Shown in pieces: positions 22,582 through 51,948 of a stretch of DNA of 64,000 nucleotides (within the stretch, counting starts at the first letter, position 1; each line of letters opens with the position of its first letter). The notes under the pieces were generated by a model, which saw nothing but the letters and a program-made list of their open reading frames with translations, made no database searches and was not told where the DNA came from. A program made the translations under genes and the position numbers. Source of the stretch: Desulfomonilia bacterium (GTDB lineage: Bacteria > Desulfobacterota > Desulfomonilia > UBA1062). The DNA lies in contig JBEKDT010000016.1 of the NCBI GenBank assembly GCA_050014195.1, positions 32,001 to 96,000 of the forward strand, in the 5' to 3' direction.

Positions 22582-22648
22582 AAGGTTGTCTGTTTCAATA
22601 CGTCAGTGCGGCAATGCCGGCAATGATTGTGTGCACCATAGCTCGGTC

Positions 22649-24987: not shown

Positions 24988-25138
24988 AACTTTCCTCTTT
25001 CGTAAATTACTGTAATGAAGTTTCGCACATAATATCAACATAAGTATAATCGAGGTATTCTCAAGGGGATCCATAAGGTAAAAGAATGAATCAAAGTCAG
25101 TATCTGATGGGAACAGCCGATTTGACAACATAGCAAAA

Positions 25139-26695: not shown

Positions 26696-26726
26696 TAAGA
26701 CGTATGGGATATCCGAAATGTCTACA
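26696..26726 (-). promoter_or_regulatory. ECF-type promoter, copy A
   Basis: TGTAGAC-atttcggatatcccat-ACGTCTTA, about 30 nt upstream of the Spy-like start. Confidence 0.8.
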
Positions 26727-26747
26727 CAGTGATTCTTATTGTTAAGA

Positions 26748-28181
26748 TCACGGCGCTACTTCCCACCCACCACCCAGGGCCTTGTAAAGGGCGATGAGAT
26801 CGGTGACGATGCTGCGCTCGCTCTGCACCAACGCATCCTGGGAAGAATAGAGCGAACGCTGGGCATTGAGCACGTTGAGAAAATCTGTCATGCCTTCCGT
26901 GTAGAGCTGCAGTGACAGGTCCACGGCCTTTTCATTGGCCGCAACAGCATCGTAAAGCACTTTACGATGTTGCTGCTCCTTGGAATATGCGATGAGCGCA
27001 TTCTCCACATCCTGTAGCGCCCCCAGCACCGTTTCCTGGTACGTGATCAAGGCCTGGTCCCGGAGCGCTTCCTGCACGTGGATGTTCGATACGATGGCGC
27101 CCCCTTCAAAAATGGACCACGTGGCCGCGGGACCGACAAAGAATGAGCGATTGGTTTTTGTCAACCAGGAGCCGAACTGGTTATTCTTCCAGTCCACTTC
27201 TCCGGTAAGTGAAAACGCCGGGAAGAGATCCGCGACGGCAACGCCGATCTGGGCAGTGGCGCTGTGAAGCTGGGCTTCGGCCTCACGAATGTCGGGCCGG
27301 CGGCGGAGCAAATCCGATGGTATACCCGCGGGGATCTGTGCAGGTATACCAGGCAGGTTACCTGTGGGCGAAAGCTTTACCAGCAAATCCGCCGGAGGAC
27401 GGGCCAATAGCACGCTCAATGCGTAGATGGATTGTTGCGCTTCGGTTTCAAAGACCGGGATTTGAGACTCGGTCGTCGCGGCGTTGCTGTCCGCATTTGC
27501 GACATCGAGCCCGCTGTCGAATCCGACTTTGTATAGCTTGCGTGTGATCTCTGCGGTGTGCTGCTGGCTTTTCAGATTATTTTGCGCAACCACGATCTCC
27601 TGTTGGTAACCTCTAAGTTGGACATAATTGAGCGCCACTTCTGCGATGAGGCTTACCTGCACGTCTTGGAGATTTTCAACAGCGGCCTCTATGTTCGCAT
27701 TCGCCGATTCGACCGCTCGGCGCTGGCCGCCGAATATATCGAGTTCCCATACCGCATCCAGTCCGGCCTCATAAAGACCTTGTGAACCGTTCCCCGGCGT
27801 GACACCCGCCGTGTGCTCCCGCTGGTAACTGCCGGATCCTGTGACTGACGGCCACAAACCGCCCGCGGCCACGCCACGCATCGCGCGGGCTTGGCGCAGG
27901 CGCGCTTCAGCGAGCGCGAGATCAAGATTCGCCTTGAGAGCCTCATCGACCAGCGCGCTCAATGTCGGGTCATTGAACTGCCGCCACCACCCCGCGAGGT
28001 CCGCCGGTTGCTCCGTCACGACGGACGGTTGTCCGGTCTTCTCCACACCGACCCACGCACCGGGGAGCGCTGCCGGCTGCGGAGTGCGATAATCCGGTCC
28101 GCTCATGCACCCGCTCAACAGCAACATAACCAAACCAAGTGCCCCAACCGGGACCAAGTGCCATTGTTCCTTCACCTTCAT
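26748..28181 (-). CDS. outer membrane factor lipoprotein (TolC/NodT family)
   Basis: Lipobox LSGC, WWRQFNDPTL, PSDLLRRRPDIREAE, LYKALGGGW. Confidence 0.92.
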   Translation of the reverse strand: MKVKEQWHLVPVGALGLVMLLLSGCMSGPDYRTPQPAALPGAWVGVEKTGQPSVVTEQPADLAGWWRQFNDPTLSALVDEALKANLDLALAEARLRQARAMRGVAAGGLWPSVTGSGSYQREHTAGVTPGNGSQGLYEAGLDAVWELDIFGGQRRAVESANANIEAAVENLQDVQVSLIAEVALNYVQLRGYQQEIVVAQNNLKSQQHTAEITRKLYKVGFDSGLDVANADSNAATTESQIPVFETEAQQSIYALSVLLARPPADLLVKLSPTGNLPGIPAQIPAGIPSDLLRRRPDIREAEAQLHSATAQIGVAVADLFPAFSLTGEVDWKNNQFGSWLTKTNRSFFVGPAATWSIFEGGAIVSNIHVQEALRDQALITYQETVLGALQDVENALIAYSKEQQHRKVLYDAVAANEKAVDLSLQLYTEGMTDFLNVLNAQRSLYSSQDALVQSERSIVTDLIALYKALGGGWEVAP

Positions 28182-28188
28182 CACTACC

Positions 28189-29562
28189 TCATTCATACCT
28201 AAGCGCGTCGATGGGATCGAGCCGCGAGCCCTTCCATGCCGGATAGAAACCGAAAATAACGCCCACACTTGCGGACACGACCACGGCCGCCACGATCGCA
28301 CCCACAGAAGGCGCTGTCGGCCAATGGAGCACCTTAGATACAAGATAGGAAGTGCCACGACCGAGAATGATGCCCATGATGCCGCCGAGCAGACAAAGCA
28401 CGACGGCCTCTATCAAGAATTGCTGCAGGATGTCGTTCGGCTCGGCGCCGACCGCCATGCGAAGGCCGATCTCGTGCGTTCGCTCGGTCACCGAGACGAG
28501 CATGATGTTCATAATGCCAACGCCGCCCACCACGAGCGAGATCATGGCCACGTACAGGAGTAGTCTGGTTATCAGCTCTGTAGTCGAACTCATTGCCTTG
28601 GTAATCTCGGTCATGTCACGAACTCTGAAATCGTCCGGATCAGCCGCGAGGAGGTGGTGACGTTCCCGCAGCACGGCCGTCATTTGCCCGATGGCGGAAG
28701 GAATCGCGTCCGCTCCCTTGGCGGCGGTAAGGATCTGGTCCACGTTGGTAAACCGGATAGGTTGCGGCAGGTCCGCCTGCTCGATGCTCGACGGAACCGG
28801 ATAGCGGCTCGAGGTAATGTTCGGATAGATTTGGCTGAGCGAATTGACTTCCGTGGTGTTCGACGTATTGGTGGCGCTCTGGTTGCCGCTCGAAAGGGAG
28901 GTGGCAACCACGCGGTATTTGATCGTCGTCCAAGGCGCGAGGAGGGTATCGTCCTGGTCCTGGCCCATCAAGTTCGCTCCCTTTTGCCTCAACACGCCGA
29001 TGACCTTGAAGGTGACATTCCGGATGCGGATCTCCTTGCCGACGGGCGATTGTCCGCCGAACAACTCCCTCACGATCGTTTGGCCGACCATACACACTTT
29101 GCTCAAGTTGAGGACGTCATGCTCGGTGAACGCTTCGCCTTGGTCCATACCGGTCCAGTCGCGCACCTTTAAAAACGACGGGGTGGTGCCATAGATGGAC
29201 GTAGGCACCCAGTTGCGGTTGCCGTACACCAGCTGCGCGCGGGCGCGCACGATCGGCGCCACGCTCGCGATAGCGGGACACTCCTTCAGAACCGCATCCG
29301 CGTCCTGCGGCGTCAGCGTCATCATGCTCCCGACGCCCATGTTGATGCCGCCGATATTTTGAGCCCCCGGTATGATCACCAGGGTATTGGCGCCTATACT
29401 CGTCATGGTGCGCTGAATGGCGATGGATGCGCCGTTGCCGATCTCCATCATGGTGATGACTGCGGCAACGCCGATGACAATGCCGAGCGTGGTGAGCAGC
29501 GTGCGCATGATGTTCCGTCGAAGCGCACCTGCAGCCGTCTTCAGGATGCCATACAACCTCAT
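28189..29562 (-). CDS. MacB/FtsX-type ABC permease
   Basis: RTLLTTLGIVIGVAAV, VGGVGIMNIMLVSVTERTHEIGLRMAVGA, LDPIDALRYE. Confidence 0.93.
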   Translation of the reverse strand: MRLYGILKTAAGALRRNIMRTLLTTLGIVIGVAAVITMMEIGNGASIAIQRTMTSIGANTLVIIPGAQNIGGINMGVGSMMTLTPQDADAVLKECPAIASVAPIVRARAQLVYGNRNWVPTSIYGTTPSFLKVRDWTGMDQGEAFTEHDVLNLSKVCMVGQTIVRELFGGQSPVGKEIRIRNVTFKVIGVLRQKGANLMGQDQDDTLLAPWTTIKYRVVATSLSSGNQSATNTSNTTEVNSLSQIYPNITSSRYPVPSSIEQADLPQPIRFTNVDQILTAAKGADAIPSAIGQMTAVLRERHHLLAADPDDFRVRDMTEITKAMSSTTELITRLLLYVAMISLVVGGVGIMNIMLVSVTERTHEIGLRMAVGAEPNDILQQFLIEAVVLCLLGGIMGIILGRGTSYLVSKVLHWPTAPSVGAIVAAVVVSASVGVIFGFYPAWKGSRLDPIDALRYE

Positions 29563-30251
29563 GGGGCATCTCCTGAGTGTTCTACGAGGCCGTCCTTGAT
29601 GCGAATGATCCGTCCGGCGTATTGCGCCACGCCGGGATCATGGGTGACGAGGATGATAGTGATGCCATCGTCCCTGTTGAGCTGCTGGAACATCCGGAGT
29701 AATTCCTCGCTCGTGTGCGAGTCGAGGTTGCCGGTCGGCTCGTCCGCGAGGAGTATCTCGGGCTGGTTGATCAGCGCCCTGGCGATTGCTACGCGCTGCT
29801 GTTCCCCTCCAGAGAGTTGGGACGGCTGGTGATCGCTCCGGTCTGCCAGGCCGACCTTGCGGAGCAGTTCCACGGCGCGCTCTTTCTTTTGGTGCTCGCT
29901 CAGGTTCTCCCTCGAATACGTGAGCGGCATCAGGACGTTCTCCAATGCACTGGTGCGCGGCAGCAGGTTGAAGTTTTGGAAAACAAAACCGATTATCCGA
30001 TTTCGCAGCCGGGCCTGTTCCCTGTGGGTGAGGCCGGAAATCTCCCGGCCGTCCAGTAAGTAATCTCCTGAAGTCGGGTGATCGAGGCACCCGAGGATGT
30101 GCATCAGCGTACTCTTTCCGGAGCCGCTGGCGCCCATTAAGGCCGCGAGTTCGCCGCGGCTGATGCCAAGCGACACGCCCTTGAGCACCGGTAGGTCGAC
30201 CTCGCCGAGATGGTAGGTCTTGCGAATATCGTGCAGTTCGATTAGGTCCAT
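29559..30251 (-). CDS. MacB/LolD-type ABC ATPase
   Basis: GASGSGKST, LSGGEQQRVAIARAL, LADEPTGNLD, VTHD. Confidence 0.94.
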   Translation of the reverse strand: MDLIELHDIRKTYHLGEVDLPVLKGVSLGISRGELAALMGASGSGKSTLMHILGCLDHPTSGDYLLDGREISGLTHREQARLRNRIIGFVFQNFNLLPRTSALENVLMPLTYSRENLSEHQKKERAVELLRKVGLADRSDHQPSQLSGGEQQRVAIARALINQPEILLADEPTGNLDSHTSEELLRMFQQLNRDDGITIILVTHDPGVAQYAGRIIRIKDGLVEHSGDAP

Positions 30252-30279
30252 GACTTTCGCCGCTCCCTTACCGGCTTGT

Positions 30280-31617
30280 TTAGCGTTCAGTGCCGGAAGG
30301 CGGGGCTCCCTGGCTTTGGCTCTGAGACCGTCCACGGCCGATTTGAGGCGTGAAAGGATTGCGGTCGGTGCTCGGGGCTGCTTCGGCCTCCCGCATCCCT
30401 TCGCCTATGACCACGCGCAGGCCCTCGGTCAAACCCCTGCCCTCGACCTCGGTGGATGCGCCGTCTGTCAACCCGGTCTTCACGCGAATAGGTCGCACGA
30501 ACTTGCCTTGCTCGACCCAGATGATTCCACGCGAGCCGGCAATGTCAGAGCCGTGGTCCCGATGCCCGGATCTTTTGCGAGAGTCCGGCACTATCTGGTT
30601 GGGCCGCGGCGACCAACTAAGCGCCGCATTCGGGACCATGAGCACACCGTGCCGGCTGCCGATTTGGAATTGGGCGTTAGCCGTCTGATAAGGCAGGAGC
30701 TTGCCGTCTTCGTTGTCGGTGTCGACCGCGACTGTGTACGTGACGACATTTTGCGTCATCGTCGCGTTGAGCCGAACCTGGTCGACATGTCCATGAAACA
30801 CCCGGCCGGGATATGCATCCACGGTGAACGTCACCGGCTGGCCTCTGGAAATGCTGCCGATGTCGGCCTCGTTGACCGACAACCACACCTGAATATGCTT
30901 AAGGTCACTCGCTATGAGGAATAGGCTCGGCGCGCTCAGGCTGGATACAACGGTCTGACCGATGTTAACCCGCCGGTCAATAACCACACCATTGACCGGC
31001 GACTTGATGGTACAGTAATCGAGATTGATGCGCGCAGTGTTGAGGTTGGCCTTAGCCTGTGCCACCGCTGCCTTTGCCTGCTCAACGGCGGCTATGGCCG
31101 CTGCAAGATTGGCCTTTGCAACCTCGTAATTGGCTTGGTATTGATCGTAGGCGCTCTGCGCCAATGCATCGGATGGCCCGAGCTTCTGCGCACGGTTCCA
31201 GTCCGCCTGAGCCTGCAACAACTTCGCCTTCATCTGGAGCACATTGGCATCGGCGCTGATTTTGTTGGCCTCGTTCTGCTGGAGTTGGGCCTTGGCGGTT
31301 TCCAGTGCAGCAGCATACAGTGAATCATCAATTCTCGCCAGTACCGTTCCTGCCTCCACAACGGAACCCCAGTCGATAGGTTTCCCGCGACTGTCCTTGC
31401 CAAAGGCGTTAATCACTCCAGCAACCTGTGCGCCTATGTCCACTGAGGCAATCGGCTCGATCGTGCCTGTTGCACTGATGGTAGTCACCAGATCCCCCCG
31501 TCTTACAGGGGTAGTATGGAATACCTGCCCCTTATCCCTTCCGGACCGGTACGACCACACGCCGACAACGGCAAGCCCGACAACCACCAAAACTACGATT
31601 ATTACTGTTCGTCGCAT
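30280..31617 (-). CDS. MacA-type periplasmic adaptor
   Basis: SATGTIEP, IGAQVAG, coiled coil, SPVNGVVIDRRVNIGQTV, VNEADIG, FTVDAYP. Confidence 0.92.
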   Translation of the reverse strand: MRRTVIIVVLVVVGLAVVGVWSYRSGRDKGQVFHTTPVRRGDLVTTISATGTIEPIASVDIGAQVAGVINAFGKDSRGKPIDWGSVVEAGTVLARIDDSLYAAALETAKAQLQQNEANKISADANVLQMKAKLLQAQADWNRAQKLGPSDALAQSAYDQYQANYEVAKANLAAAIAAVEQAKAAVAQAKANLNTARINLDYCTIKSPVNGVVIDRRVNIGQTVVSSLSAPSLFLIASDLKHIQVWLSVNEADIGSISRGQPVTFTVDAYPGRVFHGHVDQVRLNATMTQNVVTYTVAVDTDNEDGKLLPYQTANAQFQIGSRHGVLMVPNAALSWSPRPNQIVPDSRKRSGHRDHGSDIAGSRGIIWVEQGKFVRPIRVKTGLTDGASTEVEGRGLTEGLRVVIGEGMREAEAAPSTDRNPFTPQIGRGRSQSQSQGAPPSGTER

Positions 31618-31810
31618 ACTTCTCTCCCGTTACGATTATGGACGTATGGATGACCGCAATACAACGCAATCCATATACCACGGGGCCATGAGGTGGAGCA
31701 GATAGCCGGCCGCGTAGTCAGGACATGGAGATGGGCTGTCCAATATCCAATATATTCGCTGTCTGAGCACGTTTTCTTAAGGCGCATTCTAACAAAGCCG
31801 TTTAGCTGTT

Positions 31811-31841
31811 TAGGACGTCTGAGATATCAGAAATGTCTACA
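31811..31841 (-). promoter_or_regulatory. ECF-type promoter, copy B
   Basis: TGTAGAC-atttctgatatctcag-ACGTCCTA, upstream of the macAB-tolC operon. Confidence 0.8.
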
Positions 31842-31926
31842 CAGAGAGAAATGGGAGATATGAGGGGCCGAGCTTCCCGCCCTTACCTGCCCGACCCCAT
31901 CGGGACCGATTATCGGCAGCGAAGTC

Positions 31927-32463
31927 TTATACTGTCTGATCCACCTGAGTAGCTGAAGTGGTCTGGGATGCTGAGTTTGCTGACCCTACGTATTGTTGAA
32001 GGATAGACAAAAGAGTATCGGGGCTCATGTTTTCAATATCCTGTATTGCCTGCGAATTGAGAGATTGACTCGTAGAAGAAGATGATCCGCTACCCGTAGT
32101 TTGTGCCTGTTCCTCAGATATGACATCCTGGGCCAAGCTGGGGTTTGACTGCATGAGCTTCGCATTCTCATCAGACAGCATGATATTGTATAGGGAATCG
32201 CTTGAATCATTCGATTCCTGGTTACCGCTCAGTAAATTGTAGATAGAACTATCCGATCCCACGGTCCCCTGGTTATCAATGTCGAGAAGTGGGTCGTCGT
32301 TCTGTATCTCCTGTGCATAGTTGCTAAGGCTGACAATGTCTGTAGCGTTGGTCCCCGAAGCCTGTGTCTGGGCATTCGACACCTGGGTTGAAGTCGGACC
32401 GGTCTGCAGACTGTTGAGCAAACTTGAAAGGAGAGAGTTGTTGACGTTATTGATGGTTGACAT
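31927..32463 (-). CDS. S/T/Q/N/D-rich hypothetical protein, no Sec signal
   Basis: 178 aa, G-rich RBS, DIVSLS motif, C-terminus VDQTV; one Lys, no Arg. Confidence 0.75.
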   Translation of the reverse strand: MSTINNVNNSLLSSLLNSLQTGPTSTQVSNAQTQASGTNATDIVSLSNYAQEIQNDDPLLDIDNQGTVGSDSSIYNLLSGNQESNDSSDSLYNIMLSDENAKLMQSNPSLAQDVISEEQAQTTGSGSSSSTSQSLNSQAIQDIENMSPDTLLSILQQYVGSANSASQTTSATQVDQTV

Positions 32464-32491
32464 GGCTAATCCCCCTCTTTATCCTGTCTCT

Positions 32492-32974
32492 TCAAACTGT
32501 CGTACTTATGCTTGTCGTACTTATGCTGCTGGTGGTGGTACCATCGGTTGTACTAGTGCTCCCATCACTTCCCGTGCTTGCCGTAGCGTTCTGAGAGTAA
32601 TGGTGGTGATGGTGGTGATGATGTACTTGCCCTGCATTCTGTGTATTCTGCGTATTCTGTATATCCTGCTGCAGAGAAGTGAATGCCTGCTGGGCCGCTG
32701 TCAGGTCACCTGAAGCGAGTGCACTTGCAAGGCTGTTGTAATCGGTTAGAATAGGATTATTCTGATTGGACAGCTGCCCAGTACCGCCAACTTGGCTGAC
32801 GCTTTGGGTATTAGAACCTTGGAATGCTGTTAAAGCCTGCTGGGCTCCTGTCAGATTACCTGACTGGATGGCAGTTATCATATCCTGAAAATCCTGCTGC
32901 TGTTGTTTCCAGTTGCTCTGCATAACGTTCTGATAAGAATTACTTCCTGATGAAATCCCTGATACTGTCGACAT
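32492..32974 (-). CDS. S/T/Q-rich hypothetical protein with His8 tract, no Sec signal
   Basis: 160 aa, RBS GGGAGG, two SG[ND]LT.AQQA repeats, HHHHHHHH. Confidence 0.78.
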   Translation of the reverse strand: MSTVSGISSGSNSYQNVMQSNWKQQQQDFQDMITAIQSGNLTGAQQALTAFQGSNTQSVSQVGGTGQLSNQNNPILTDYNSLASALASGDLTAAQQAFTSLQQDIQNTQNTQNAGQVHHHHHHHHYSQNATASTGSDGSTSTTDGTTTSSISTTSISTTV

Positions 32975-32999
32975 AACGCCCTCCCTACGGGTTTTTTAT

Positions 33000-33121
33000 T
33001 GATCGGCAAATTTTTCCTACCTTCCTGTATCAAAATGTGCCGGTCCTCCCATTGATTGGCTTATCCAGACAATTGCCGCTGCTTTTATCCATTACATATG
33101 CAGATTGCATTTTCTATTCCA
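33000..33121 (-). promoter_or_regulatory. possible sigma54 site and sigma28-like -10 element
   Basis: TGGAATAGAAAATGCA (GG-N10-GC, 33121-33106). GCCGATCA (33007-33000) lies 25 nt before ATG 32974, but its -35 is poor. Confidence 0.35.
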
Positions 33122-33271
33122 TCCTGTTTCTTTCATTGGGTTCTGTCCAGGAACATGGACTATTATGAAAAGCTGGTTATATTTTTTATATGGGTCTCTT
33201 GCTATTCCCGCATTCCCTCTAAATTTTCTCTTTTGAAACTCAATCGGGTGGCAGCCGATGGGGGGGATAAT

Positions 33272-34228
33272 TTAGTCTCTGTGCCTTTCTTCCATCCCGC
33301 CTCTACCGCCGCCGCCCGAGGGCGGTCTGATCTTACCACCGCCATGAGGGGTCGGGTTGCCCTTTCTGCTTCCCCTAGAAGACGGGGTGGTAATCTTATT
33401 CTTTGACATCTTCTGTGTACGGGTCCCGTTAAAAATGGTTCTTTCGCTTTTCTGAACACCCGTAGAGATAAAGTTTCCACCATGAGGAGCACCTATGCCG
33501 GCAAAGGTGCTTCCATGGAATCTCGACACTGCATCGACACGAAAAACCCTATGCTCTCTAACGTCATTGAAATGATTAGATATGAATACCGTCCTATTAT
33601 TCACATATACGATCCTGTGGAAATCTTGGAGGATGAAAAACCCGGCAAACCAGAAATCGGACCACCAGAACGGACAGGGAACCCATGAGTACATGTAATC
33701 ATAGTCAGGAGGTGGTGCGTAGTATGTCACTACCGGCGGGCCTTGGTTGGAATAATAGTTGTTTATCACTGTTTGATCGGGTGATTGCCCGGGACCCGAT
33801 GGGCGGGGTTGATTGGAGGCATAAGGCCTTATGGATAAATTGAGGTCCGCTACTGTGTCTTGGAATATATGCAGGGCCTCATCTCTTTCGTCGGGTAGCC
33901 TTTGGGCAATTGCGGCATCACTCACTGATCTTTGTAACTCGGTGATGATGTCGGGGGTAACCGGGTAATCGGCGATCCACCCATTCCGCGGTGCGATACC
34001 GACCTCACCGAGCCGGCTCTCGGCTTCAACTTCATCCTGGGTTGATCCGAGGCCCAATGCGGTATCCAGCTTGATCGCAAAGTCTCCTTCACGGACCAGC
34101 TGCTGTGCTAACGGAGGCGAGGCCTGTCCGGCCTGCTCTGATTGTGCATGAATCATTGCCGGCATCAGAAACAAAAGACACAGACTGACAATACATGATC
34201 CCTTACACCTGAAAGGCACCCGTTTCAT
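33272..34228 (-). CDS. exported hypothetical protein
   Basis: AAGGAG RBS, signal peptide ending IHA, helical N-domain, Pro/Tyr/Trp-rich middle, Gly/Arg-rich tail. Confidence 0.75.
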   Translation of the reverse strand: MKRVPFRCKGSCIVSLCLLFLMPAMIHAQSEQAGQASPPLAQQLVREGDFAIKLDTALGLGSTQDEVEAESRLGEVGIAPRNGWIADYPVTPDIITELQRSVSDAAIAQRLPDERDEALHIFQDTVADLNLSIRPYASNQPRPSGPGQSPDQTVINNYYSNQGPPVVTYYAPPPDYDYMYSWVPCPFWWSDFWFAGFFILQDFHRIVYVNNRTVFISNHFNDVREHRVFRVDAVSRFHGSTFAGIGAPHGGNFISTGVQKSERTIFNGTRTQKMSKNKITTPSSRGSRKGNPTPHGGGKIRPPSGGGGRGGMEERHRD

Positions 34229-34351
34229 TGAACTTCTCCTTTCATCTTTCGCTCTCCATATATACTAAAGATGGGCTCTGAAAATTCCAGCACCCGTGAT
34301 CAGGAGATACATTTAATATTGTTCATGGCAACTGCTGATATTCAATTAGCA

Positions 34352-35671
34352 TTAAGAATTTCCGATCCTCCCCTCGTGAGATTTTTTAATGGTCTTTTCC
34401 ATTGAATTAAGCTCGGTGACCACGTCTTTGGGAAGCTGATCCTTGGCCTTAAGCGCCTGATCAATATGATATAAACCTGCTCGGTATTCCCCGGTCTTAA
34501 AGAAGTATCTTGCATAGGAAACATGGGCCAAAGCAGGCTTTGTTGTCTTATCATACAGACCCCCGAGGGTGTAATCCACACGCGGATCCTGAGATTGGTA
34601 AGGTAATAATATATCTATGGCTTCCTTGTACTCCCCCCTCTCTTGGTAAATATCTGCCAGGGCCATCTTGGTGCGGGCCGAGTTGGCGTAGGTTTTCAAA
34701 AGGGGGTAGGCCTCTGTTTTTCTCCCGAGAGAATAGAGGTCAAGACCCCTGTATGCGTTGGCAATGGGCAGGTCTATATTTGAGAGCAAGGCAATGGCCT
34801 GTGAGCTGTTACCAAGTCTTGTGTGTAAAAGGCCTAAAGCGAGCGATTTGTAAGGCTCGGGCATCTGTGTCACACGGATATTGACCTCGCCTTCCGACAG
34901 CATCAACCCGATGACACTTGCCTCAAGTATCCAGTAATTCTTGTCTGGTTTAGGATTACCTGGATCAACTTTCAGAATCGCAATTCGGTTTTCCGTAAAT
35001 GGATGGGTCAGAAGGTATTCCGGCATGCTCGATGATCCATTAATAGTTTGGAGCCTGATGAGAAATCTCGCCATTGCCCCAGGATCGAGTCCTGAAGCAC
35101 TTAAGGTCTCTTTTCCGAAGTTGTCTGCTGCATATTCATGCTCTCTGGAGTGGGCAAGCATGATGTTCTGGCTGCCTCCAACTGCTGAGGACATCACGGC
35201 TGCACCGGCCTCGGGGTTTTTTGTCGCAAGCAGGCCTCCCGCAATTATTCCCAGAATCGTGGCAATAGAGAGTGGTTTTTGAAATTGAGAATCTTGAGGT
35301 ATATGCCTCATTTGAGCATGGCCCATCTCATGGCCAAGGACTGCTGATATTTCATCCATATCCTTTGCAACGAGAAAGATGCCAAGCTGTATGAAGATGT
35401 TACCGTCAGGGATTGTGAAGGCATTTACTTCAGTATCCTTGATGACATGTATCTTGAAAGAATATAACGGGTCCTTAACATGATCGGCCAAGCGGTCTAC
35501 AAGCATCTGAACCGGCCTGACGATCTCCTCGTCGTGAACAAGGAGATTGTTATCCTCCATCATTTTGACAAACTCATTCGCACTCTTAGTTTCCTCTGCA
35601 TATGTCATGGCCATGACAGATTGAACTGGCAGTACCATAAGCACCAGGAGAACAATCATAATCTTTTTCAT
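34352..35671 (-). CDS. M48 metalloprotease with TPRs, BepA/YfgC-like
   Basis: Signal peptide, VNAFTIPDG, HEMGH zinc motif, EYAAD, YLLTHP, helical TPR-like C-terminus. Confidence 0.88.
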   Translation of the reverse strand: MKKIMIVLLVLMVLPVQSVMAMTYAEETKSANEFVKMMEDNNLLVHDEEIVRPVQMLVDRLADHVKDPLYSFKIHVIKDTEVNAFTIPDGNIFIQLGIFLVAKDMDEISAVLGHEMGHAQMRHIPQDSQFQKPLSIATILGIIAGGLLATKNPEAGAAVMSSAVGGSQNIMLAHSREHEYAADNFGKETLSASGLDPGAMARFLIRLQTINGSSSMPEYLLTHPFTENRIAILKVDPGNPKPDKNYWILEASVIGLMLSEGEVNIRVTQMPEPYKSLALGLLHTRLGNSSQAIALLSNIDLPIANAYRGLDLYSLGRKTEAYPLLKTYANSARTKMALADIYQERGEYKEAIDILLPYQSQDPRVDYTLGGLYDKTTKPALAHVSYARYFFKTGEYRAGLYHIDQALKAKDQLPKDVVTELNSMEKTIKKSHEGRIGNS

Positions 35672-35780
35672 GGCAATATCATGTACCTTCCACAGTCAAA
35701 TGAGCTTCATCAGAGCCCTGGCTTCTTGAAGCCGTGTAATTCGCCCACCGTTCCTCTTCAGTGTCATTTCCTTTGAGCAT

Positions 35781-35811
35781 TATGACGTCCCGTTTGAGAG
35801 TTTAGTCTACA
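35781..35811 (-). promoter_or_regulatory. ECF-type promoter, copy C
   Basis: TGTAGAC-taaactctcaaacggg-ACGTCATA, about 110 nt upstream of the M48 gene. Confidence 0.75.
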
Positions 35812-35914
35812 TGACTGCTATTAACGGAAACGAGAGCATAGAAGAGCACTGTTTTATTTCTATAGTTCGATAATCACAACCAGGCAAGGCCTTTACAAAG
35901 ATTTACACTCTTCC

Positions 35915-35944
35915 TGTAAACAATGGGGCGGCACAGACGTCTAA
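35915..35944 (+). promoter_or_regulatory. ECF-type promoter variant, divergent from copy C
   Basis: TGTAAAC-N15-ACGTCTAA (spacer 1 nt shorter), pointing at the MBL gene. Confidence 0.5.
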
Positions 35945-36041
35945 CTAAGCAATATAAACGAAACGTGATTGTTTACTTTACTATTACCTTAGACCCCCTT
36001 GACCAGCCGCGCAAATCAGGTATAGAGTCCTTCACTAAACT

Positions 36042-36980
36042 ATGATCCTGGAAAAGCTCACGGCACAAGGCATCCGCATCACCAGCGTCACGGACTCTCT
36101 CCATGTGATCCACGGGAACAACCGCGGACGGTCGCCCTTCTGTAATGCCTTCCTGGTCCTTGACACCGTGAATTGCCTTTTCGATACGGGGTGTGGGCTG
36201 GACATCATTGAGAAGCTCTGCTCGGAGGTACGGATAGACCGGGTATTTGTTTCGCACTCCCACCTGGACCATACCTCTGGATGCTGGATGATCGATAAGA
36301 CCTCGGGGTCCGAGATCATGGTTCCCGAAGAGGACAGCGACACCATAGCGACAGCAGAGCTCCTGGCATTACGTTTTGTGGGTGAGCAGCTCTTCACAAC
36401 CTGGATGGAGACCTACCCAGGGCTCACCGGGTTCAGGGACTTCACCATCACCTCCACCTTCAGCCATGAATATGAATTCTCCACCGGCTCCTTGAGCTTC
36501 GTGGCCCTGTACACCCCGGGGCACTTGAATGATCACTATTGCTTCTGGGTGCCGGATAAGAAGATCCTTCTGGGGTTTGACATTGACCTGAGCCCCTTCG
36601 GGCCGTGGTACGGCAACCCGGAGTGCGACATAGCGTTGTTCAAGAATTCAATCGCAGGGATCATGGAATTGCCCTCAGAGGTCTACCTCTCGTCCCATGC
36701 ACGGCCCATCAAGAACCCGTACATCAAGAAGAGGCTCCATGCCTTCAGAGCATTCTTTGATGAGCGAGACCGGCAGATCCTGGACCTCCTTTCGCAATCG
36801 CCTCTCATGGGCATAGAGGATCTCGTGAGGCTCTCACCCTTCTACGATGCGGACCATGCCTCGCTCTCGGACGAACTCCTCTGGTTCGGCGAGGAGCAGA
36901 TGATCCGGAAGCATCTGGATGGTCTGATGGATAAGGGATTGGTTGTCCGTGAGGGAGAGTTCTACCGGGTCAGTCGCTAA
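36042..36980 (+). CDS. metallo-beta-lactamase-fold hydrolase with C-terminal winged-helix-like region
   Basis: FDTG, SHSHLDH (HxHxDH), TPGH, SSH. Confidence 0.88.
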   Translation: MILEKLTAQGIRITSVTDSLHVIHGNNRGRSPFCNAFLVLDTVNCLFDTGCGLDIIEKLCSEVRIDRVFVSHSHLDHTSGCWMIDKTSGSEIMVPEEDSDTIATAELLALRFVGEQLFTTWMETYPGLTGFRDFTITSTFSHEYEFSTGSLSFVALYTPGHLNDHYCFWVPDKKILLGFDIDLSPFGPWYGNPECDIALFKNSIAGIMELPSEVYLSSHARPIKNPYIKKRLHAFRAFFDERDRQILDLLSQSPLMGIEDLVRLSPFYDADHASLSDELLWFGEEQMIRKHLDGLMDKGLVVREGEFYRVSR

Positions 36981-37038
36981 AAAAGATTCATCATAGTAAA
37001 GCATACCCGGATCATTGAGGATCATGCAGAGGGATACT

Positions 37039-37437: not shown

Positions 37438-37499
37438 AACAATGTGCCTCAAAATATTTTTAGAACTTCCTAAAAAAATACGCCTCACAGAGAAGAACC

Positions 37500-41653: not shown

Positions 41654-41654
<1 letters not shown>
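40833..41654 (-). CDS. mreC: rod shape-determining protein MreC
   Basis: TM segment, coiled coil (ENGRLR), IDRG, VLLITDPNS, VVTSGLEGIFPKG. Confidence 0.94.
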
Positions 41655-42727
<1,073 letters not shown>

Positions 42728-42824
42728 TCACGCCCTCTTAACAAATGCAACTGTCTTTTACAAGGCCATTAAAAGATCCGCTGCGGTTGCGAAAACCTCC
42801 TCTTTATGATAGCAAGACACCTTG

Positions 42825-43820: not shown

Positions 43821-43874
43821 AGGACTATAAGCCTCAGATTGACTTTCTCTCGCTGCACGCCTACATAATTATAT

Positions 43875-46310: not shown

Positions 46311-47574
46311 CAAACGCATTTGCTGCGGCCTTTGATGCCTGCTCCATGATATCGGGCGTGTGGGCTGTGCTGATGAATAGGGCCTCATAGGCCGATGGTG
46401 CCAGGTACACACCCTCATCGAGCATGGCGTGGAAGAACTTCGCATACCTCGCTGCATCCGATGCCATCACATCTTCAAAGGTCTCCACCGGCCCTTCATG
46501 GAAAAACATCCCTGCCATTGGGCCTACCCTATTGATCCTCAGCGGTATGCCTTTCTTATACGCCTGGTCCTCAAGCACTGAGGTGAATGCAGCCAGGGCC
46601 CGTCCTAGTCCCTCATAGGGGTTCAGGTCTTTGAGTGTCTTAAGTGTCGCTATGCCGGCGGCCATGGCCAGGGGGTTACCGGACAGCGTGCCCGCCTGGT
46701 AGACCGGACCGGTCGGAGAGAGCAGGTCCATGATATCCCCCCGGCCTCCGAAGGCTGCAGCCGGCATGCCGCCGCCCAATATCTTACCCAAACAGGTGAG
46801 GTCCGGTGTTATGCCGGCAAGGTCCTGGTAACCGCCGAAACAGAACCTGAAGCCCGTGATCACCTCATCGAAGATGAGTAACGCCCCACAGGCCTTTGTC
46901 TGACCACGGATCGTTTCCAGGAAACGCTGCCTGGGCAGTACCACCCCCATGTTCCCTGCCACGGGCTCCACGATGACTGCAGCCACCTCGGCCCCTCGCT
47001 TGTTCATGAAGTCTTCGAAGTGCACCGTATCATTGTAGGGCAGCACGGCAGTCGTTGAGGCGAGCCCCTCCGGTACGCCCGAGGAATCGGGGACACCCAG
47101 GGTCAACAAGCCGGAGCCCGCCTTGACCAGGAGGCTGTCCACATGGCCGTGATAGCACCCCTCAAACTTGACGATGAGCTGTCTATTGGTAGCTGCCCGT
47201 GCCAGCCTGATGGCGCTCATGGTCGCCTCGGTGCCCGAGCTGACGAATCGGACCTTCTCGATGCTGGAAAAGGCAGCGCATACAAGTTCGGCCAACCTGG
47301 TTTCCAACTCGGTCGGTGCCCCATAACTCATGCCCAGGCCGGCCTGCTGTCTGACGGCATCCACCACTGCCTTATGACAGTGGCCGAGGATGAGCGGCCC
47401 CCAGGAGAGCACGAAATCAATATACCGCTTTCCCTCGGCATCCGTAAGGAAGGCACCTGCACCCCGGACTATGAACCGGGGAACGCCGCCCACCTTCCGG
47501 AATGCCCGGACCGGCGAATTCACACCACCCGGAATGACCTTCTGCGCCGCCTCGAACAGGTCCTTATTCGTCAC
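46300..47574 (-). CDS. hemL: glutamate-1-semialdehyde 2,1-aminomutase
   Basis: PGGVNSPVRAF, SGTEATM, GCYHGH, FDEVITGFR, GKILGGG, YQAGTLSGNP. Confidence 0.96.
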   Translation of the reverse strand: MTNKDLFEAAQKVIPGGVNSPVRAFRKVGGVPRFIVRGAGAFLTDAEGKRYIDFVLSWGPLILGHCHKAVVDAVRQQAGLGMSYGAPTELETRLAELVCAAFSSIEKVRFVSSGTEATMSAIRLARAATNRQLIVKFEGCYHGHVDSLLVKAGSGLLTLGVPDSSGVPEGLASTTAVLPYNDTVHFEDFMNKRGAEVAAVIVEPVAGNMGVVLPRQRFLETIRGQTKACGALLIFDEVITGFRFCFGGYQDLAGITPDLTCLGKILGGGMPAAAFGGRGDIMDLLSPTGPVYQAGTLSGNPLAMAAGIATLKTLKDLNPYEGLGRALAAFTSVLEDQAYKKGIPLRINRVGPMAGMFFHEGPVETFEDVMASDAARYAKFFHAMLDEGVYLAPSAYEALFISTAHTPDIMEQASKAAANAFARL

Positions 47575-48049
47575 AAGAATCCTCCTGGAAAGAATATCTC
47601 ATGGATGTCTTCTTCAGTTCCCGTATGCTCCAGAATATTTGATAATCCCTTATGCCGGTCAACGATGAGATGCCTTCAACCGTTTCTAAAAGTTCTTCCC
47701 TCGTCCGCGCATGGATCATGGAAAAGACCGTATAGGGGGCAAAACCCTCACGCTCATAGCAGTGGCTCACAGAAGCAGAAGATGCGATTTGTGCTCCAAG
47801 CCCGTCCACTTGAGCCGGCGGCACGGCCCAGACCACCATGGCATTGGCCCTGAACCCGGCCTTTCTATGCCTAAGCACGGCCTTAACCTCTCTGATTACC
47901 CCTTTTTCTTTCAGCGTTTGGAGCCGTGACATGACCTCTTGAACGGAAATGCCGATCTTGTCTGCCCACCTATCAAAGGGCCGTTCGCACACATCCAGGT
48001 CCCCTTGGGCACAAGCGAGGACCTTCTTGTCGATATCATCGAGTTTCAT
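47564..48049 (-). CDS. ahbB: siroheme decarboxylase subunit (AhbB/NirH-like, Lrp/AsnC fold)
   Basis: QGDL...RPF, LRHRKAGFRANAMVVW, VSHCYER, FSMIHA, ELKKTSM; adjacent to hemL. Confidence 0.82.
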   Translation of the reverse strand: MKLDDIDKKVLACAQGDLDVCERPFDRWADKIGISVQEVMSRLQTLKEKGVIREVKAVLRHRKAGFRANAMVVWAVPPAQVDGLGAQIASSASVSHCYEREGFAPYTVFSMIHARTREELLETVEGISSLTGIRDYQIFWSIRELKKTSMRYSFQEDSCDE

Positions 48050-48162
48050 GGATGTGATCTCAACACAGCTTAGTGGACTAATCAACCATGAAAGTGCAAA
48101 AGCGACCGGCAGTAAAGCTGAGTTATTGTCAGGCAATGAAGCGGCAGGGCTTATAAGACAAA

Positions 48163-48201
48163 GGAAAACGGGGCACACAATCAATGCACGCCCCGTTTTC
48201 C
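48163..48201 (-). terminator. probable terminator of the ECF operon
   Basis: 12-bp inverted repeat GGAAAACGGGGC...GCCCCGTTTTCC just past the 48210 stop, followed by TTTGTCTT on the minus strand. Confidence 0.7.
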
Positions 48202-48209
48202 CATTCGGT

Positions 48210-50129
48210 TTAGCCGGTGAGTTTCACCATAATATATCCCGAGGTCAAGGTTGCGGTGGTGTTATTAAACGTACCCCAGGCATAGATGTGTTTTATCTTT
48301 GAACCTGCGGTAATCTTGCTCCGGAGGTCGGTCTCAAAGCTTGAAAATGTGGAGTAAACCTGGGAGGCGCCCCCTTGGTCGATGCGGAACCTGGCTGAGC
48401 CGTCAGTCGAGGGTACGATCTCAGGGGTAGTAACAGGCAGTAATTCGAGATCGGTGAGCACCCCCATCCTGTTGATGCGATGGAAGAAACCGGTATTCGT
48501 AAGATTAAGCGTGAGGCCTGCGCCCTTGATATCGCTGAAAGCGTCCTTTTTTCCGGCGCCCCAGCCGACATTCATCATTCCTTGTACATCAGAAACATCA
48601 ACGATTGTCTGGGCCTCGAAGTCGGGTACTGTCGGAGGATTTGCAGTTTCGAATGCACTCACAAACCCCAGCACCTTTACCGGTGTTCCTGCTATAAATA
48701 GCGAAAGATCGAGTGGGCTTGCACCTATGATATAATTAGTCGGATCGGCATCATGAGCCGTATCGATGCCGGTACCGGTAAAATCAAACAATTCGATGTC
48801 CTTGTTATTCTTTATATTCCGCCAGTCGATGGACTGGAGATTCACGGCCAGTTCCTCATTGCTGAGAGGCTCTGTCGCTACGGTCCCGATAAGCACGGTC
48901 AGGAGCATGCGCGCAAAACCGCTGGTTGCGTCAAGTTGGAGATTACTAGATCCGGGATTTGTGAGAGTCCCGAAGACCATGACACGCTGCCCCACAGAGA
49001 TGTCATCTTTCGTGTAGCTGTCCTTTGAATACTGCCTGCTCACCTTGGTGCCGCTCCCGAGGGTTACCTGCACCTTGTCTTTATAAACTATGCTCCCGCC
49101 TGCCCTGATCATGGTCGCGCCCTTAAGGGTCAGCACATCACCTAAGCGGCTGAGCACGGTGCCTCCGGCAACATCGAGGGCCCCTCCGGGAACGCTCGAT
49201 CCCGCCAGGACTTCCGTGGCTACAAAGTGCAGTGGGTTTGCGACGAACTGGCCATGGCTGATGAGAGCCGTGTAGGCAGGCAAACCACTTAAAACCGTGA
49301 GACCCGACGAACCCTGGTAGCTGATGCTGTTGATGTTATAGACAGTGCTGTCATCTACGGTAACCTTCACAACCCCAAAGCTTGTTTCATGTACCGCAAG
49401 GTCTTGGACGAAAGGACGAAGGATGATATTGAATGTGTTGTCGGCCACATCTACATCCTTAAGCGGACCCCTCAGGCGCTGGATCTTGTCCTGATCGGGC
49501 TGCAGGTCGGCCTTGAGAATAGGAGTCACCGTCATGGAGGCCGAGTTGCCGTCCGCTGCCAATGTCACGGTGTTCGTGGCGGCAAGGTCGAAGTCAAGAG
49601 AGAGATGGGCAAGCACACCCGGAGCAATCGTGAGAGAAGACACGTCGAGATCCATGGTAACTTGGACCGGCTGGGTGATGGGTGTGGCGTTTCCTTCATC
49701 GTCAAGGATGTCTATGCTTGTTACCGGCACCGCCGCACCTGCGGAATTCTCCACCATAATGTCGGCATCGGAGTAATCCAGGGTGAGGACGGCCTTGGTA
49801 TAGGCCCCCAATGGTACGGTGCATGCCGTCAGGAATTCCGTCATATCGGTCAGCTGGGCGAAGTCTACCGATGTTTTCAACGGGAGGGTCTCAACTACCG
49901 CCCCATTGGCCTTGGTCAGGGTAAGGGAGGTCACGTCCACCTGATAGTGCACAAAGTCTCCGGGCGCATCGGTGAGTCCGATCAAGGCCTGGCCTGATGT
50001 GGAACTGATCCCGGTTGATGAAGAGCTGCTCCCGCCTGTGCTGCTGCCGCACCCTTGCAGGATAAAGAATAAGGACAAGAACAGGATAAAACTGATTCCC
50101 TTCCGTGGGCAAGAAAATATTCCCTTCAT
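48210..50129 (-). CDS. large lipoprotein, DUF4382-like N-domain plus beta-rich repeats
   Basis: Lipobox LQGC, Ser/Gly linker, IGLTDAPGDF...LDFDL pattern. Confidence 0.75.
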   Translation of the reverse strand: MKGIFSCPRKGISFILFLSLFFILQGCGSSTGGSSSSSTGISSTSGQALIGLTDAPGDFVHYQVDVTSLTLTKANGAVVETLPLKTSVDFAQLTDMTEFLTACTVPLGAYTKAVLTLDYSDADIMVENSAGAAVPVTSIDILDDEGNATPITQPVQVTMDLDVSSLTIAPGVLAHLSLDFDLAATNTVTLAADGNSASMTVTPILKADLQPDQDKIQRLRGPLKDVDVADNTFNIILRPFVQDLAVHETSFGVVKVTVDDSTVYNINSISYQGSSGLTVLSGLPAYTALISHGQFVANPLHFVATEVLAGSSVPGGALDVAGGTVLSRLGDVLTLKGATMIRAGGSIVYKDKVQVTLGSGTKVSRQYSKDSYTKDDISVGQRVMVFGTLTNPGSSNLQLDATSGFARMLLTVLIGTVATEPLSNEELAVNLQSIDWRNIKNNKDIELFDFTGTGIDTAHDADPTNYIIGASPLDLSLFIAGTPVKVLGFVSAFETANPPTVPDFEAQTIVDVSDVQGMMNVGWGAGKKDAFSDIKGAGLTLNLTNTGFFHRINRMGVLTDLELLPVTTPEIVPSTDGSARFRIDQGGASQVYSTFSSFETDLRSKITAGSKIKHIYAWGTFNNTTATLTSGYIMVKLTG

Positions 50130-50250
50130 GCTGATACCTCCTCATGGGTATAGCTATCTTTTCTTTTATGTATTCCAACTCATGATTTTCGAATGTATTA
50201 TGATGCTGCGCAAGTTATCTTTTGGTAATCTTTTTAATGCTGCATAAGTA

Positions 50251-50718
50251 TTACTGTTCCTCTTTACCCCTGAACCCCTGGCCTTCATGCCCAAACCTTT
50301 TTTTCCGCATCTCATCCGCCATTGCACTCAGCCGCTGGAAACGGTCCTGACCAAGGATCTTTCTTACGCCAAGGATATACTTGAAGCGCTCTGCAGCAAG
50401 TTTCTGCCTCTTCTCCTCCACCCGTTTGTACTGGGCTGCCGCGGATGCATCATTTACGGGCTCTTTATTCAGGATGTCCTCCAGCTTGAGCCGCTCTTTA
50501 TCAAGATCGCTTTTCATGTCGATGAACTTGTCCCGGTTCTTGATGAACATATCATCAAGGGCCTGCTTTTCTTTATCCGTCAGGTTGAGTTCTTTGGCCA
50601 CCCCGGGCCGTTGCCACCACCTCCCGTTCCCCATGTCCTGTGCATAAACATCCCCGGAGGTGATGATCATTGCGGCAAGCACCACAACAGCCACGACAAA
50701 GTACTTATTCATATCCAT
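50251..50718 (-). CDS. periplasmic Spy/CpxP/ZraP-like protein (paralog 1)
   Basis: Signal peptide ending VYA, WWQRPGVAKELNLTDKEKQAL, VRKILGQDRF. Confidence 0.82.
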   Translation of the reverse strand: MDMNKYFVVAVVVLAAMIITSGDVYAQDMGNGRWWQRPGVAKELNLTDKEKQALDDMFIKNRDKFIDMKSDLDKERLKLEDILNKEPVNDASAAAQYKRVEEKRQKLAAERFKYILGVRKILGQDRFQRLSAMADEMRKKRFGHEGQGFRGKEEQ

Positions 50719-50723
50719 TCTCC

Positions 50724-51254
50724 TTATATATCCATTACATCCGGCATCGTTTCCATCGGGTCCATATAATCAAAGGCATCATCATCCATGGTAGAATCGC
50801 TCGAAGGCAGGATCTCGACATAGGCCGAAGCAAAAGGATTTTCTTCAAGCTGCCGGACATCGGCAGTGAACCTCTCATCCTGCGCCATCTCCCGAGCGAG
50901 ATCGGCCCTGGTCCCGTGCGGTATTGTCCGGGTGAAAAACTGGGGCAGAACCAGGGCCAATACCAGCGCCAAGGATGCCAAGACTGCAACGGCCCCCGTG
51001 GGCCATCTGATGAGCCATGTTGATGGTTTTACCGGCTCCAAGGCTGGAAGCCTGACCTTCATCCGGGAGACCGGAGTGAACCGTAAAGCCTGTTCCGAGA
51101 TCGAATCGAGCCGGCCGGCTAAAAGCCTTCTGGCTTCGCAGCATTCAGGGCAGTGTTCCAGATGATCCCGTTCATGCATGGTAAGGTCTTGCTCGTCTAT
51201 CAGAGACATGGTTATACGCTGCGGGTCCAGATGCACATTTTTATCGTGCCTCAT
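50724..51254 (-). CDS. zinc-binding anti-sigma factor (ZAS), single TM segment
   Basis: HLEHCPEC (HxxxCxxC), one hydrophobic helix, ATGA overlap with the sigma gene. Confidence 0.85.
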   Translation of the reverse strand: MRHDKNVHLDPQRITMSLIDEQDLTMHERDHLEHCPECCEARRLLAGRLDSISEQALRFTPVSRMKVRLPALEPVKPSTWLIRWPTGAVAVLASLALVLALVLPQFFTRTIPHGTRADLAREMAQDERFTADVRQLEENPFASAYVEILPSSDSTMDDDAFDYMDPMETMPDVMDI

Positions 51255-51877
51255 TTCTCTACCTCCCCGGACATTCCTTCGTCCGGATATTCTTTTCTAA
51301 ACTTCTCAATGGCCCGGTACAGATGTGTTTTTACCGCGCTCTCGCTCCTGCCAAGCGTTATTGCAATCTCCTGGATGCTCAAGCTTTCGAGAAAGCGCAA
51401 TCTGAATACCTCCTGCTGGAGTCCCGGCAGACACGTAAGAAATTTGTTGAAACGGTCCCAGAATCGCTTTCCGGCCAGTTGGTCGTAACCGTCCGGGCTT
51501 GGGTCCGGATGCTCCTGATCTATATCCTTTTCTCCAAAACTGAACAGGGAGGCAAATTTCTGCCTCCTTCGAAAATCTTTGACCTTATTGACGGCGATGC
51601 GATAGAGCCAGGCCCTAAAGAGCTCAGGGCTCCTGAGCGTGTTCATGCTGCCGTATGCCTTCAGGAACACGTCCTGAACCAGGTCTTCTGCATCCGCTCT
51701 TGACTGAAGACGTGCATACACCATGCGAAAAATTCCCCCTTGATGGATCTCGATCAGCTCCTCAAATGAGCGCCTGTCACCGTCAATGGCAGCCCTGACG
51801 AGGATCTCGATATCCGTGTTGATCTTGTTATCCTTGTGCCTTCCATCTTCCTGCATCGACCTGCATTCTACCAGCAC
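51251..51877 (-). CDS. ECF RNA polymerase sigma factor
   Basis: Region 2: DAEDLVQDVFLKAY...FRAWLYRIAVN. Region 4: QQEVFRLR...IQEIA..L..SESAVKTHLYRA. Exact start uncertain. Confidence 0.94.
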   Translation of the reverse strand: MLVECRSMQEDGRHKDNKINTDIEILVRAAIDGDRRSFEELIEIHQGGIFRMVYARLQSRADAEDLVQDVFLKAYGSMNTLRSPELFRAWLYRIAVNKVKDFRRRQKFASLFSFGEKDIDQEHPDPSPDGYDQLAGKRFWDRFNKFLTCLPGLQQEVFRLRFLESLSIQEIAITLGRSESAVKTHLYRAIEKFRKEYPDEGMSGEVEK

Positions 51878-51917
51878 TTAAATATCCGCGTCTGCCTTTT
51901 TCTTACCTGTTGCCATG

Positions 51918-51948
51918 TAAGACGTATGAGGAAAAGGATTTGTCTACA
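51918..51948 (-). promoter_or_regulatory. ECF-type promoter, copy D (probably autoregulatory)
   Basis: TGTAGAC-aaatccttttcctcat-ACGTCTTA, directly upstream of the ECF sigma gene. Confidence 0.82.

Follow-up and report, generated by a model that had tools for sequence, protein, structure and literature searches.

A conserved TGTARAC/CGTC promoter and the probable envelope and export regulon of an ECF sigma factor in Desulfomonilia and related anaerobes

A 64,000-nucleotide stretch of the genome of a Desulfomonilia bacterium (assembly GCA_050014195.1, contig JBEKDT010000016.1, positions 32,001 to 96,000; "the window" below) carries genes for a sigma factor of the extracytoplasmic function (ECF) type, a putative anti-sigma factor and an exported protein of the Spy/CpxP family, as well as four copies of a bipartite sequence motif. 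In all likelihood the four repeats act as promoters for the stress sigma factor encoded nearby. We hold with considerable confidence that the motif is the promoter of the sigma gene itself (51251-51856), and that the sigma factor would control an envelope and export regulon through release of its anti-sigma factor. As judged from sequence comparison, the promoter consists of a -35 element, TGTARAC, followed by an A/T run, a 17-bp spacer, and a -10 element, CGTC, followed by WT. The same promoter appears to precede the sigma gene across many anaerobic deltaproteobacteria and to mark a regulon of exported and outer-membrane proteins.

The first-pass annotation of the window defined the motif as TGTAGAC-N16-ACGTCNTA, in which N16 plus one base corresponds to the 17-bp spacer of the notation TGTARAC-N17-CGTC used here. 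Its four minus-strand matches lie exactly where that annotation had placed them (Table 1). When checked against the gene calls, all are intergenic and each is oriented into a gene: site 1 lies 31 bp 5' of a second Spy-like gene, site 2 is 193 bp 5' of macA, site 3 is 109 bp 5' of an M48 peptidase gene, and the remaining site is 61 bp 5' of the likely ATG of the sigma gene. Not one of 100 dinucleotide-shuffled versions of the window has any match, and the whole genome (G000; 29 contigs, numbered with C below; 4,215,580 bases) has the same four exact copies and no other. The concern that the motif was defined after it had been seen is met by a matrix built only from 37 promoters of distant orthologues, with which the window sites rank 1st, 4th, 6th and 13th in the genome. 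The motif as first defined is thus real; it was also too narrow, missing 14 further genome matches to TGTARAC-N16/17-CGTC, one of which is a fifth window site on the plus strand. Pfam supports all of the gene labels that had been given (Sigma70_r2 and r4_2; Metal_resist, PF13801; HlyD, ABC, MacB_PCD and OEP; Peptidase_M48 and TPR), while the MacA, MacB and BepA labels are the best NCBIfam matches but all fall below the cut-off.

The promoter is conserved along with the sigma gene. TGTARAC-N16/17-CGTC was found within the 1.5 kb upstream of 18 of 18 orthologous sigma genes, the window's included, whose proteins are 44-100% identical. It stands mostly 60-150 bp from the start, with GAC in 17 loci and a 17-bp spacer in 17, while the spacer sequences have diverged. 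A close homologue of the sigma factor (E<=1e-35) is present in 14 of 14 same-genus genomes and in 3 of 10 other genomes of the family, one in each, and in none of 16 genomes of another family; its nearest named relatives are in Desulfomonilia, Syntrophobacteraceae and Desulfobacterales records. A wider scan of the collection gave 80 loci, 50 of which, plus L223, form one clade with the window's sigma factor in a quick tree (SH-like approximate likelihood ratio test, 99). L223 lacks upstream DNA and was left out of both the ingroup and the outgroup counts. Within 700 bp, the exact motif was found at 33 of the 50 clade loci (with a 17-bp spacer in 32 of the 33) and a relaxed version at 45, with no control matches, against 0 exact and 4 loose matches at 29 outgroup loci. 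Three of these four are Acidobacteriaceae loci with a Spy-like neighbour. Among 26 other loci of M48 homologues (including L044, which lacks upstream DNA) and 20 loci of the genome's other ECF sigma factor, none carries the motif. The 18 of 18 loci, the conserved motif and the empty controls support the earlier proposal of an autoregulated ECF promoter with control over envelope and export functions. In one distant genome, a second member of the sigma clade likewise has a promoter copy to itself (L309, G054:C3:4590641).

An unseeded expectation-maximisation search of 43 distant upstream regions recovered the same signal de novo, as ttTGTAgAC.Aatt........cat.CGTCtt in 38 of them, with a log-likelihood of 527 compared to 122 for shuffled input. 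Applied to the genome, the resulting matrix gave 10 matches with a spacer of 17, compared to 0-3 for any one of 15 other spacers. The GAC ending of the -35 element, which the first-pass annotation called a variant, is not fixed: the 37 distant promoters have G at that position in 19 cases and A in 18. GAC was rejected as a diagnostic feature, AAC being about equally common.

The regulon was originally pictured as a neighbourhood 16-25 kb from the sigma gene, but the sites are spread genome-wide. TGTARAC-N16/17-CGTC has 18 matches in G000 versus 3 for the reversed pattern, 32 versus 4 in the related genome G002, 20 versus 4 in G003, and 5-12 versus 0-8 in the other 12 genomes of the genus. Of the 18 in G000, 15 are flagged as intergenic and another stands before a target's paralogue, so that about 16 sites lie ahead of genes, mostly for exported proteins. 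Outside the window, these include a paralogue of the DUF4382 gene, a third Spy-like gene, an outer-membrane factor, a pair of small exported paralogues and an operon that contains DUF1425 and LpoB genes. Among 95 sites from six genomes, 70 lie between genes and have a called target gene. By a crude hydropathy rule, 57 of the 70 targets have a hydrophobic N-terminus, compared to 813 of 2958 background open reading frames (ORFs). In ten further genomes, the targets include OEP, OMP-barrel, OmpA, glycine-zipper, DUF3300, DUF6600 and EF-hand proteins, and 9 of 21 scanned target proteins have no Pfam family. Target conservation was taken from pattern searches, as family-level searches gave only two same-genus genomes each. 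In G003 the sigma gene and the target island sit on different contigs, and the metallo-beta-lactamase-fold gene is followed by other genes. Because of this arrangement, the 16-25 kb distance has no meaning, and physical clustering was rejected as a feature. A site in G002 (L126, G002:C31:14144) precedes a gene that we take, by eye, to resemble Skp/OmpH.

Several observations weigh against this picture. Five of the 50 clade loci have no site within 700 bp, although two have one further up and two lie on short contigs. The clade counts overstate independence because the genomes are kin, and sites 1 and 2 are not independent either, having 47 bp in common at 87% identity. With the threshold relaxed to 16 bits, as many as 7 matches were obtained at wrong spacers, versus 13. 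The site is missing from the 26 loci of the housekeeping BepA-like gene and from 6 of 7 MacA homologue loci (35-38% identity), and the seventh of the latter has it 1.4 kb upstream, before an outer-membrane factor. None of the classical sigma-E targets bamA, surA and degP is among the G000 sites, no dedicated search of all intergenic regions having been made.

The likeness of sites 1 and 2 also bears on the notion that only the site at the sigma gene works as a promoter, the others being passive remnants of duplicated DNA. Consistent with this, the promoter marks the end of homology blocks shared with G002 and G003, the same spacer sequences turn up at more than one site, and some copies stand before genes that are no longer intact, for example a Spy-like remnant of 48 aa. 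However, the -35 and -10 letters are fixed although spacers and flanks have diverged, distant genomes have unrelated targets with unrelated spacers, and the targets are enriched for exported proteins, making this explanation very unlikely. Since sites 1 and 2 are alike and the homology blocks end at the promoter, it seems that promoter-plus-gene units have been copied and shuffled. The core regulon would consist of the sigma operon, outer-membrane factors and small exported proteins, and in the G000/G002/G003 branch it appears to have grown to 18-32 sites by copying of such units.

The motif might instead be read by another factor, either a transcription factor or a second ECF sigma factor, with the sigma operon and the targets both under its control. 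The genome has two ECF-sized sigma genes, the window's and one on C24, the latter with homologues in 21 of 24 family genomes, and co-occurrence of motif and sigma gene is no proof of the reader. Against this, the second ECF sigma factor lies outside the clade in the tree and its loci lack the motif, as noted above. The motif is bipartite with a fixed spacer, as in ECF promoters, and tracks the window's sigma factor across several families. The region-2 loop of ECF sigma factors reads the flipped -10 base, and in an eight-member Syntrophobacteraceae-like subclade the -10 element becomes CGTT together with a distinct region-2 loop sequence, albeit as a single event. We consider a different reader extremely unlikely.

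The sigma factor itself has the make-up of an ECF (group 4) protein, with sigma2 and sigma4 domains, no region 3 match and a length of 201-208 aa, and it scores over the cut-off on TIGR02937. The module was at first thought to end at a GTG start codon (51877). Frame comparison of orthologues revises this to the ATG at 51856 as the most likely start, since the upstream GTG is out of frame in some genomes. Between the ECF promoter and the start codon is a sigma70-like element that probably gives basal expression. Its pattern, C[AG]GAC[AG]-N17/18-TAG[AT]AT, occurs just 5' of the coding sequence in 14 of the 18 loci (a consensus scan missed the window's copy), and its distance to the ATG varies by one base between genomes.

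The order of sigma, anti-sigma and Spy-like genes is also conserved, with downstream homologues of the anti-sigma factor at 48 of the 50 clade loci and of the Spy-like protein at 49. The putative anti-sigma gene, at position +1, overlaps the sigma stop codon. Its product has the features of an anti-sigma factor of the ZAS (zinc-finger) type, with an upstream His and an HxxxCxxC motif in the cytoplasmic N-terminus, in which H31, C35 and C38 are invariant among 46 sequences and H8 is kept at 90% or more. The exported tail of 68 residues has a net charge of -12. The family profile matches RsiW (E=1.3e-4), while there is no Pfam family and no zf-HC2 match in any of the 46 members. The next gene encodes an exported helical protein of the Spy/CpxP family, as judged from PF13801 or LTXXQ matches, with a profile that matches Spy structures (E=1.3e-6). 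The operon-encoded family has no conserved His, and W34 and W35 are invariant. A predicted complex of the Spy-like dimer with the anti-sigma tail scored 0.28 (mark, 0.32). The DUF4382 gene that ends the operon has its own promoter copy at 3 of 9 homologue loci.

A plausible mechanism would start with basal production of sigma and anti-sigma from the weak sigma70-like promoter, the membrane-bound anti-sigma factor holding the sigma factor through its zinc-finger domain. Envelope stress would remove the anti-sigma factor, most likely by proteolysis starting at the acidic exported tail, as with RseA or with RsiW, for which release by proteolysis is known. The free sigma factor would then amplify its own operon in a positive feedback through the ECF promoter and turn on Spy-like chaperones, the BepA-like protease, MacAB-TolC-type exporters, outer-membrane barrels and lipoproteins. 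The Spy-like proteins may in turn damp the response.

Another way to read the operon is as a metal sensor, with the PF13801 protein sensing metal and signalling through the anti-sigma factor to metal exporters. The model for this is CnrH/CnrY/CnrX of Cupriavidus metallidurans (ECF291), which also combines an ECF sigma factor, a single-pass anti-sigma factor and a periplasmic protein of the PF13801 family, and which controls its own operon and an exporter (PMC6851896). The "heavy-metal resistance" match to PF13801 in 44 of 46 homologues, the His (9) and Met (15) residues of Spy-like protein 2 and the exporters among the targets would all fit. CnrX binds metal through His42, His46, Glu63 and His119 (PMC6851896), unlike the operon-encoded family, which lacks conserved metal ligands and has Spy rather than CnrX as its best structural-sequence match. 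The exporters are of the MacAB and outer-membrane factor types, not heavy-metal resistance-nodulation-division (RND) pumps like CzcA or CusA, the anti-sigma factor is of the zinc-finger type, and the promoter is different. The gene order differs as well: the ECF291 description has a CnrY-type anti-sigma factor at -2 and CnrX at -1, whereas the window has sigma, anti-sigma and PF13801 protein in that order. With no conserved ligands and no heavy-metal RND target, a metal sensor is the less likely interpretation, and we regard it as unlikely.

The predicted circuit has several relatives among known systems. SigW of Bacillus subtilis is among the best PDB sequence matches of the sigma factor (E=1.7e-14), and its partner RsiW matches the anti-sigma profile. 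Unlike SigW/RsiW, the window has Gram-negative envelope targets, a short acidic exported tail, a Spy-like partner and a TGTARAC element with a 17-bp spacer. Likenesses to ECF groups were drawn by setting the window's module beside the group descriptions in the supplement of PMC7826278. Among the closest is ECF111, described in Supplementary Text S2 as an ECF sigma factor with a single-pass anti-sigma factor at +1 and an LTXXQ/heavy-metal-resistance protein at +2, and with a conserved promoter suggesting autoregulation; it has a proteobacterial subgroup (10.94%; PMC7826278). The gene context of the window agrees with this. The ECF111 promoter, TTGAACCT / GTCTAAA, differs from TGTARAC / CGTCWT at the -35 element and is similar at the -10, although the motif of the subgroup could differ, and that description mentions no zinc finger and describes no regulon. 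The term ECF111 was not found in the main text of the papers searched, and atlas matches were unspecific. Three ECF loci from Acidobacteriaceae (L231, L236 and L243), which have a similar promoter and a Spy-like gene next to them and are weakly placed as sister to the clade, are candidates for the acidobacterial ECF111 subgroup.

ECF281s2 and ECF290 similarly have a single-pass anti-sigma factor at +1 (with a zinc finger in ECF281) and a heavy-metal-resistance protein at +2, but the ECF281 promoter, GGAACTT / GTCTAA, is unlike the window's and the +2 protein of ECF290 is membrane-bound (PMC7826278). Promoters that combine a TGT-initial -35 with a CGTC -10 are described there for ECF41, ECF42 and ECF120 (TGTCACA, TGTCGAT and TGTAACAAA / TCGTCAT), so that a -35 element without AAC is not unusual. 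ECF41 and ECF42 carry C-terminal extensions, which the window's sigma factor does not, and ECF120 is a Bacteroidetes group. Neither TAGAC nor GTAAAC was found in the text and supplement text of PMC7826278, the tables of which may already list a subgroup motif.

The suggestion that this regulon had not been described holds in part: neither motif nor regulon was found in the literature, but the gene architecture is already catalogued for ECF111, ECF281s2 and ECF290 in the supplement of PMC7826278. A search of the literature, mostly outside subscription journals, found no described ECF regulon for Desulfobacterota-type anaerobes of this kind. All told, the autoregulated regulon appears to be real and well supported, wider than at first read, conventional in its logic and new for the lineage. 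The surprise is limited because that logic, an autoregulated ECF sigma factor with a zinc-finger anti-sigma factor and chaperone and export targets, is familiar. What it offers is a promoter and a set of targets, both open to testing, for an envelope-stress sigma factor that occurs in many Desulfobacterota-type anaerobes, a motif that places many unnamed exported proteins in one response, and natural variants (AAC/GAC, CGTC/CGTT and 16/17 bp with an activator box) as material for tests of sigma-promoter specificity.

The part most worth an experiment is a subclass of sites with a short spacer. At four of the G000 sites, all with a 16-bp spacer and one of them the fifth window site, TTTAC-N5-TTTAC stands exactly 8 bp 5' of the -35 element; this sequence is the reverse of the CpxR consensus, GTAAA-N5-GTAAA (PMC5063474, PMC8831704). 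An extended form of the box has five occurrences in the genome, namely at these promoters and upstream of a gene on C22 for an OmpR/CpxR-like regulator (OmpR 211 bits and CpxR 207 bits over a 206-aa part, both under the cut-off), which lies close to the third Spy-like gene and ahead of a histidine kinase. The composite of box and promoter and the regulator are found in the same 4 of 25 genomes, apart from one extra composite match with a mismatch in G027, and 13 of the 14 composite copies in those four genomes have the short spacer. The half-sites are fixed and the linkers variable. Among 19 composite loci in metagenomes, 16 are similar to the window's genome and of its lineage; the other three, with a 17-bp spacer and no similarity, were set aside as chance.

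It is possible, though we put it forward tentatively, that one branch of the genus has two-key promoters that fire only upon both anti-sigma release and phosphorylation of a response regulator. If so, a CpxRA-like system would have been gained and a reversed box then set 8 bp 5' of an ECF -35 element with a spacer one base under the sigma factor's optimum, at Spy-like paralogues and other genes, and Spy-like proteins would close both loops. Short spacers are also found without a box, and the composite copies descend from perhaps two ancestral promoters, so that the real sample is small. For both reasons co-activation is put forward only as a hypothesis, and the box may possibly act in repression instead. 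In E. coli, degP is jointly controlled by CpxR and sigma-E; literature searches on co-activation of an ECF promoter and on the degP case found no paper. The sigma-E and Cpx regulons of E. coli share Spy, CpxP and proteases as targets with the window (for Cpx, PMC8831704), whereas here the genes of Spy/CpxP type are placed under an ECF promoter, with the box reversed, 8 bp upstream of an ECF -35 element whose spacer is one base short. In G000, a box and TGTAAAC without the CGTC -10 element precede a repeat-domain lipoprotein gene (L252, G000:C2:5649), the homologue of which in G013 has a complete short-spacer promoter.

Within the window, sites are kept before the orthologous macA, M48 and Spy-like genes in G002 and G003. 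The M48 and MacA targets are not ancient, as sites are present at 0 of 26 M48 and 1 of 7 MacA homologue loci, and the BepA-like and MacA targets are best seen, on this comparison, as recent recruits. The other BepA-like paralogue (contig C8, 59% identical) has no site. In one copy in G002, no intact gene stands between the promoter and the PKD gene. The fifth site is oriented at a metallo-beta-lactamase-fold gene (36042-36980) in the window, and at a different gene in G003. As a candidate small RNA, the 193-bp macA leader showed no better folding than its shuffled versions (z=1.27), and Rfam gave no matches in 23000-53000.

Table 1. Features of the predicted regulon in the window.
Feature	Position	Strand	Remarks
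Predicted ECF promoter of sigma operon, TGTAGAC-N17-CGTC	51918..51948	-	Rank 1 in genome; 18/18 orthologous loci; de novo motif
Predicted ECF promoter of second BepA-like gene (site 3)	35781..35811	-	Rank 4; kept before same gene in G002 and G003
Predicted ECF promoter of macA-macB-macB-outer-membrane factor (site 2)	31811..31841	-	Rank 13; site also 5' of orthologous macA in G002 and G003
Predicted ECF promoter of Spy-like gene 2 (site 1)	26696..26726	-	Rank 6 in genome
Fifth site, TGTAAAC-N16-CGTC	35915..35944	+	Divergent from site 3; edge of target island
TTTAC-N5-TTTAC box	35892..35906	+	8 bp upstream of -35 of fifth promoter
ECF sigma factor	51251..51856	-	201 aa from likely ATG (208 aa from GTG 51877); Pfam Sigma70_r2, r4_2
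Sigma70-like element, CAGACG-N18-TAGAAT	51865..51894	-	Between ECF promoter and start codon; 14/18 orthologous loci
Putative anti-sigma factor	50724..51254	-	H8..H31xxxC35xxC38; single hydrophobic helix (about 89-107); exported acidic tail, 68 aa
Spy/CpxP-family exported protein 1	50251..50718	-	PF13801 in 44/46 homologues, LTXXQ in 13
DUF4382 lipoprotein-like gene	48210..50129	-	Last gene of sigma operon
Intrinsic-terminator-like hairpin	48162..48202	-	18-pair stem; operon end (consensus scan)
M48 peptidase with TPR, BepA-like	34352..35671	-	Second paralogue
Exported protein without Pfam family	33272..34228	-	Probably co-transcribed; directly behind promoter in G003
MacA-like adaptor, ABC ATPase, MacB permease, outer-membrane factor	26748..31617	-	Pfam, NCBIfam
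Spy-like protein 2	26143..26664	-	His/Met-rich N-terminus; 44% identical to protein 1
PKD-domain lipoprotein-like gene	25365..25988	-	Probably co-transcribed with Spy-like 2

The interval from the M48 unit to macA holds two low-complexity ORFs rich in Ser, Gln, Thr and Asn (31927-32974, minus strand; 160 and 178 aa, one with a His run), for which no family was found. There is a paralogue on C5, and C22 has a gene like them that is divergent from the CpxR-like regulator. The Spy-like 2, PKD and fn3/NHL genes are followed downstream by an MdtABC-like RND operon with an outer-membrane factor (14826-23926, minus strand) that has no ECF site of its own and is possibly reached by read-through from site 1. 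The fn3 and NHL-repeat protein (24142-25131, minus strand) differs in repeat number in G002 and G003. In G031, a genome without a close homologue of the sigma factor, about 30 near-identical matches to the relaxed motif, on many contigs, look like a repeat element.

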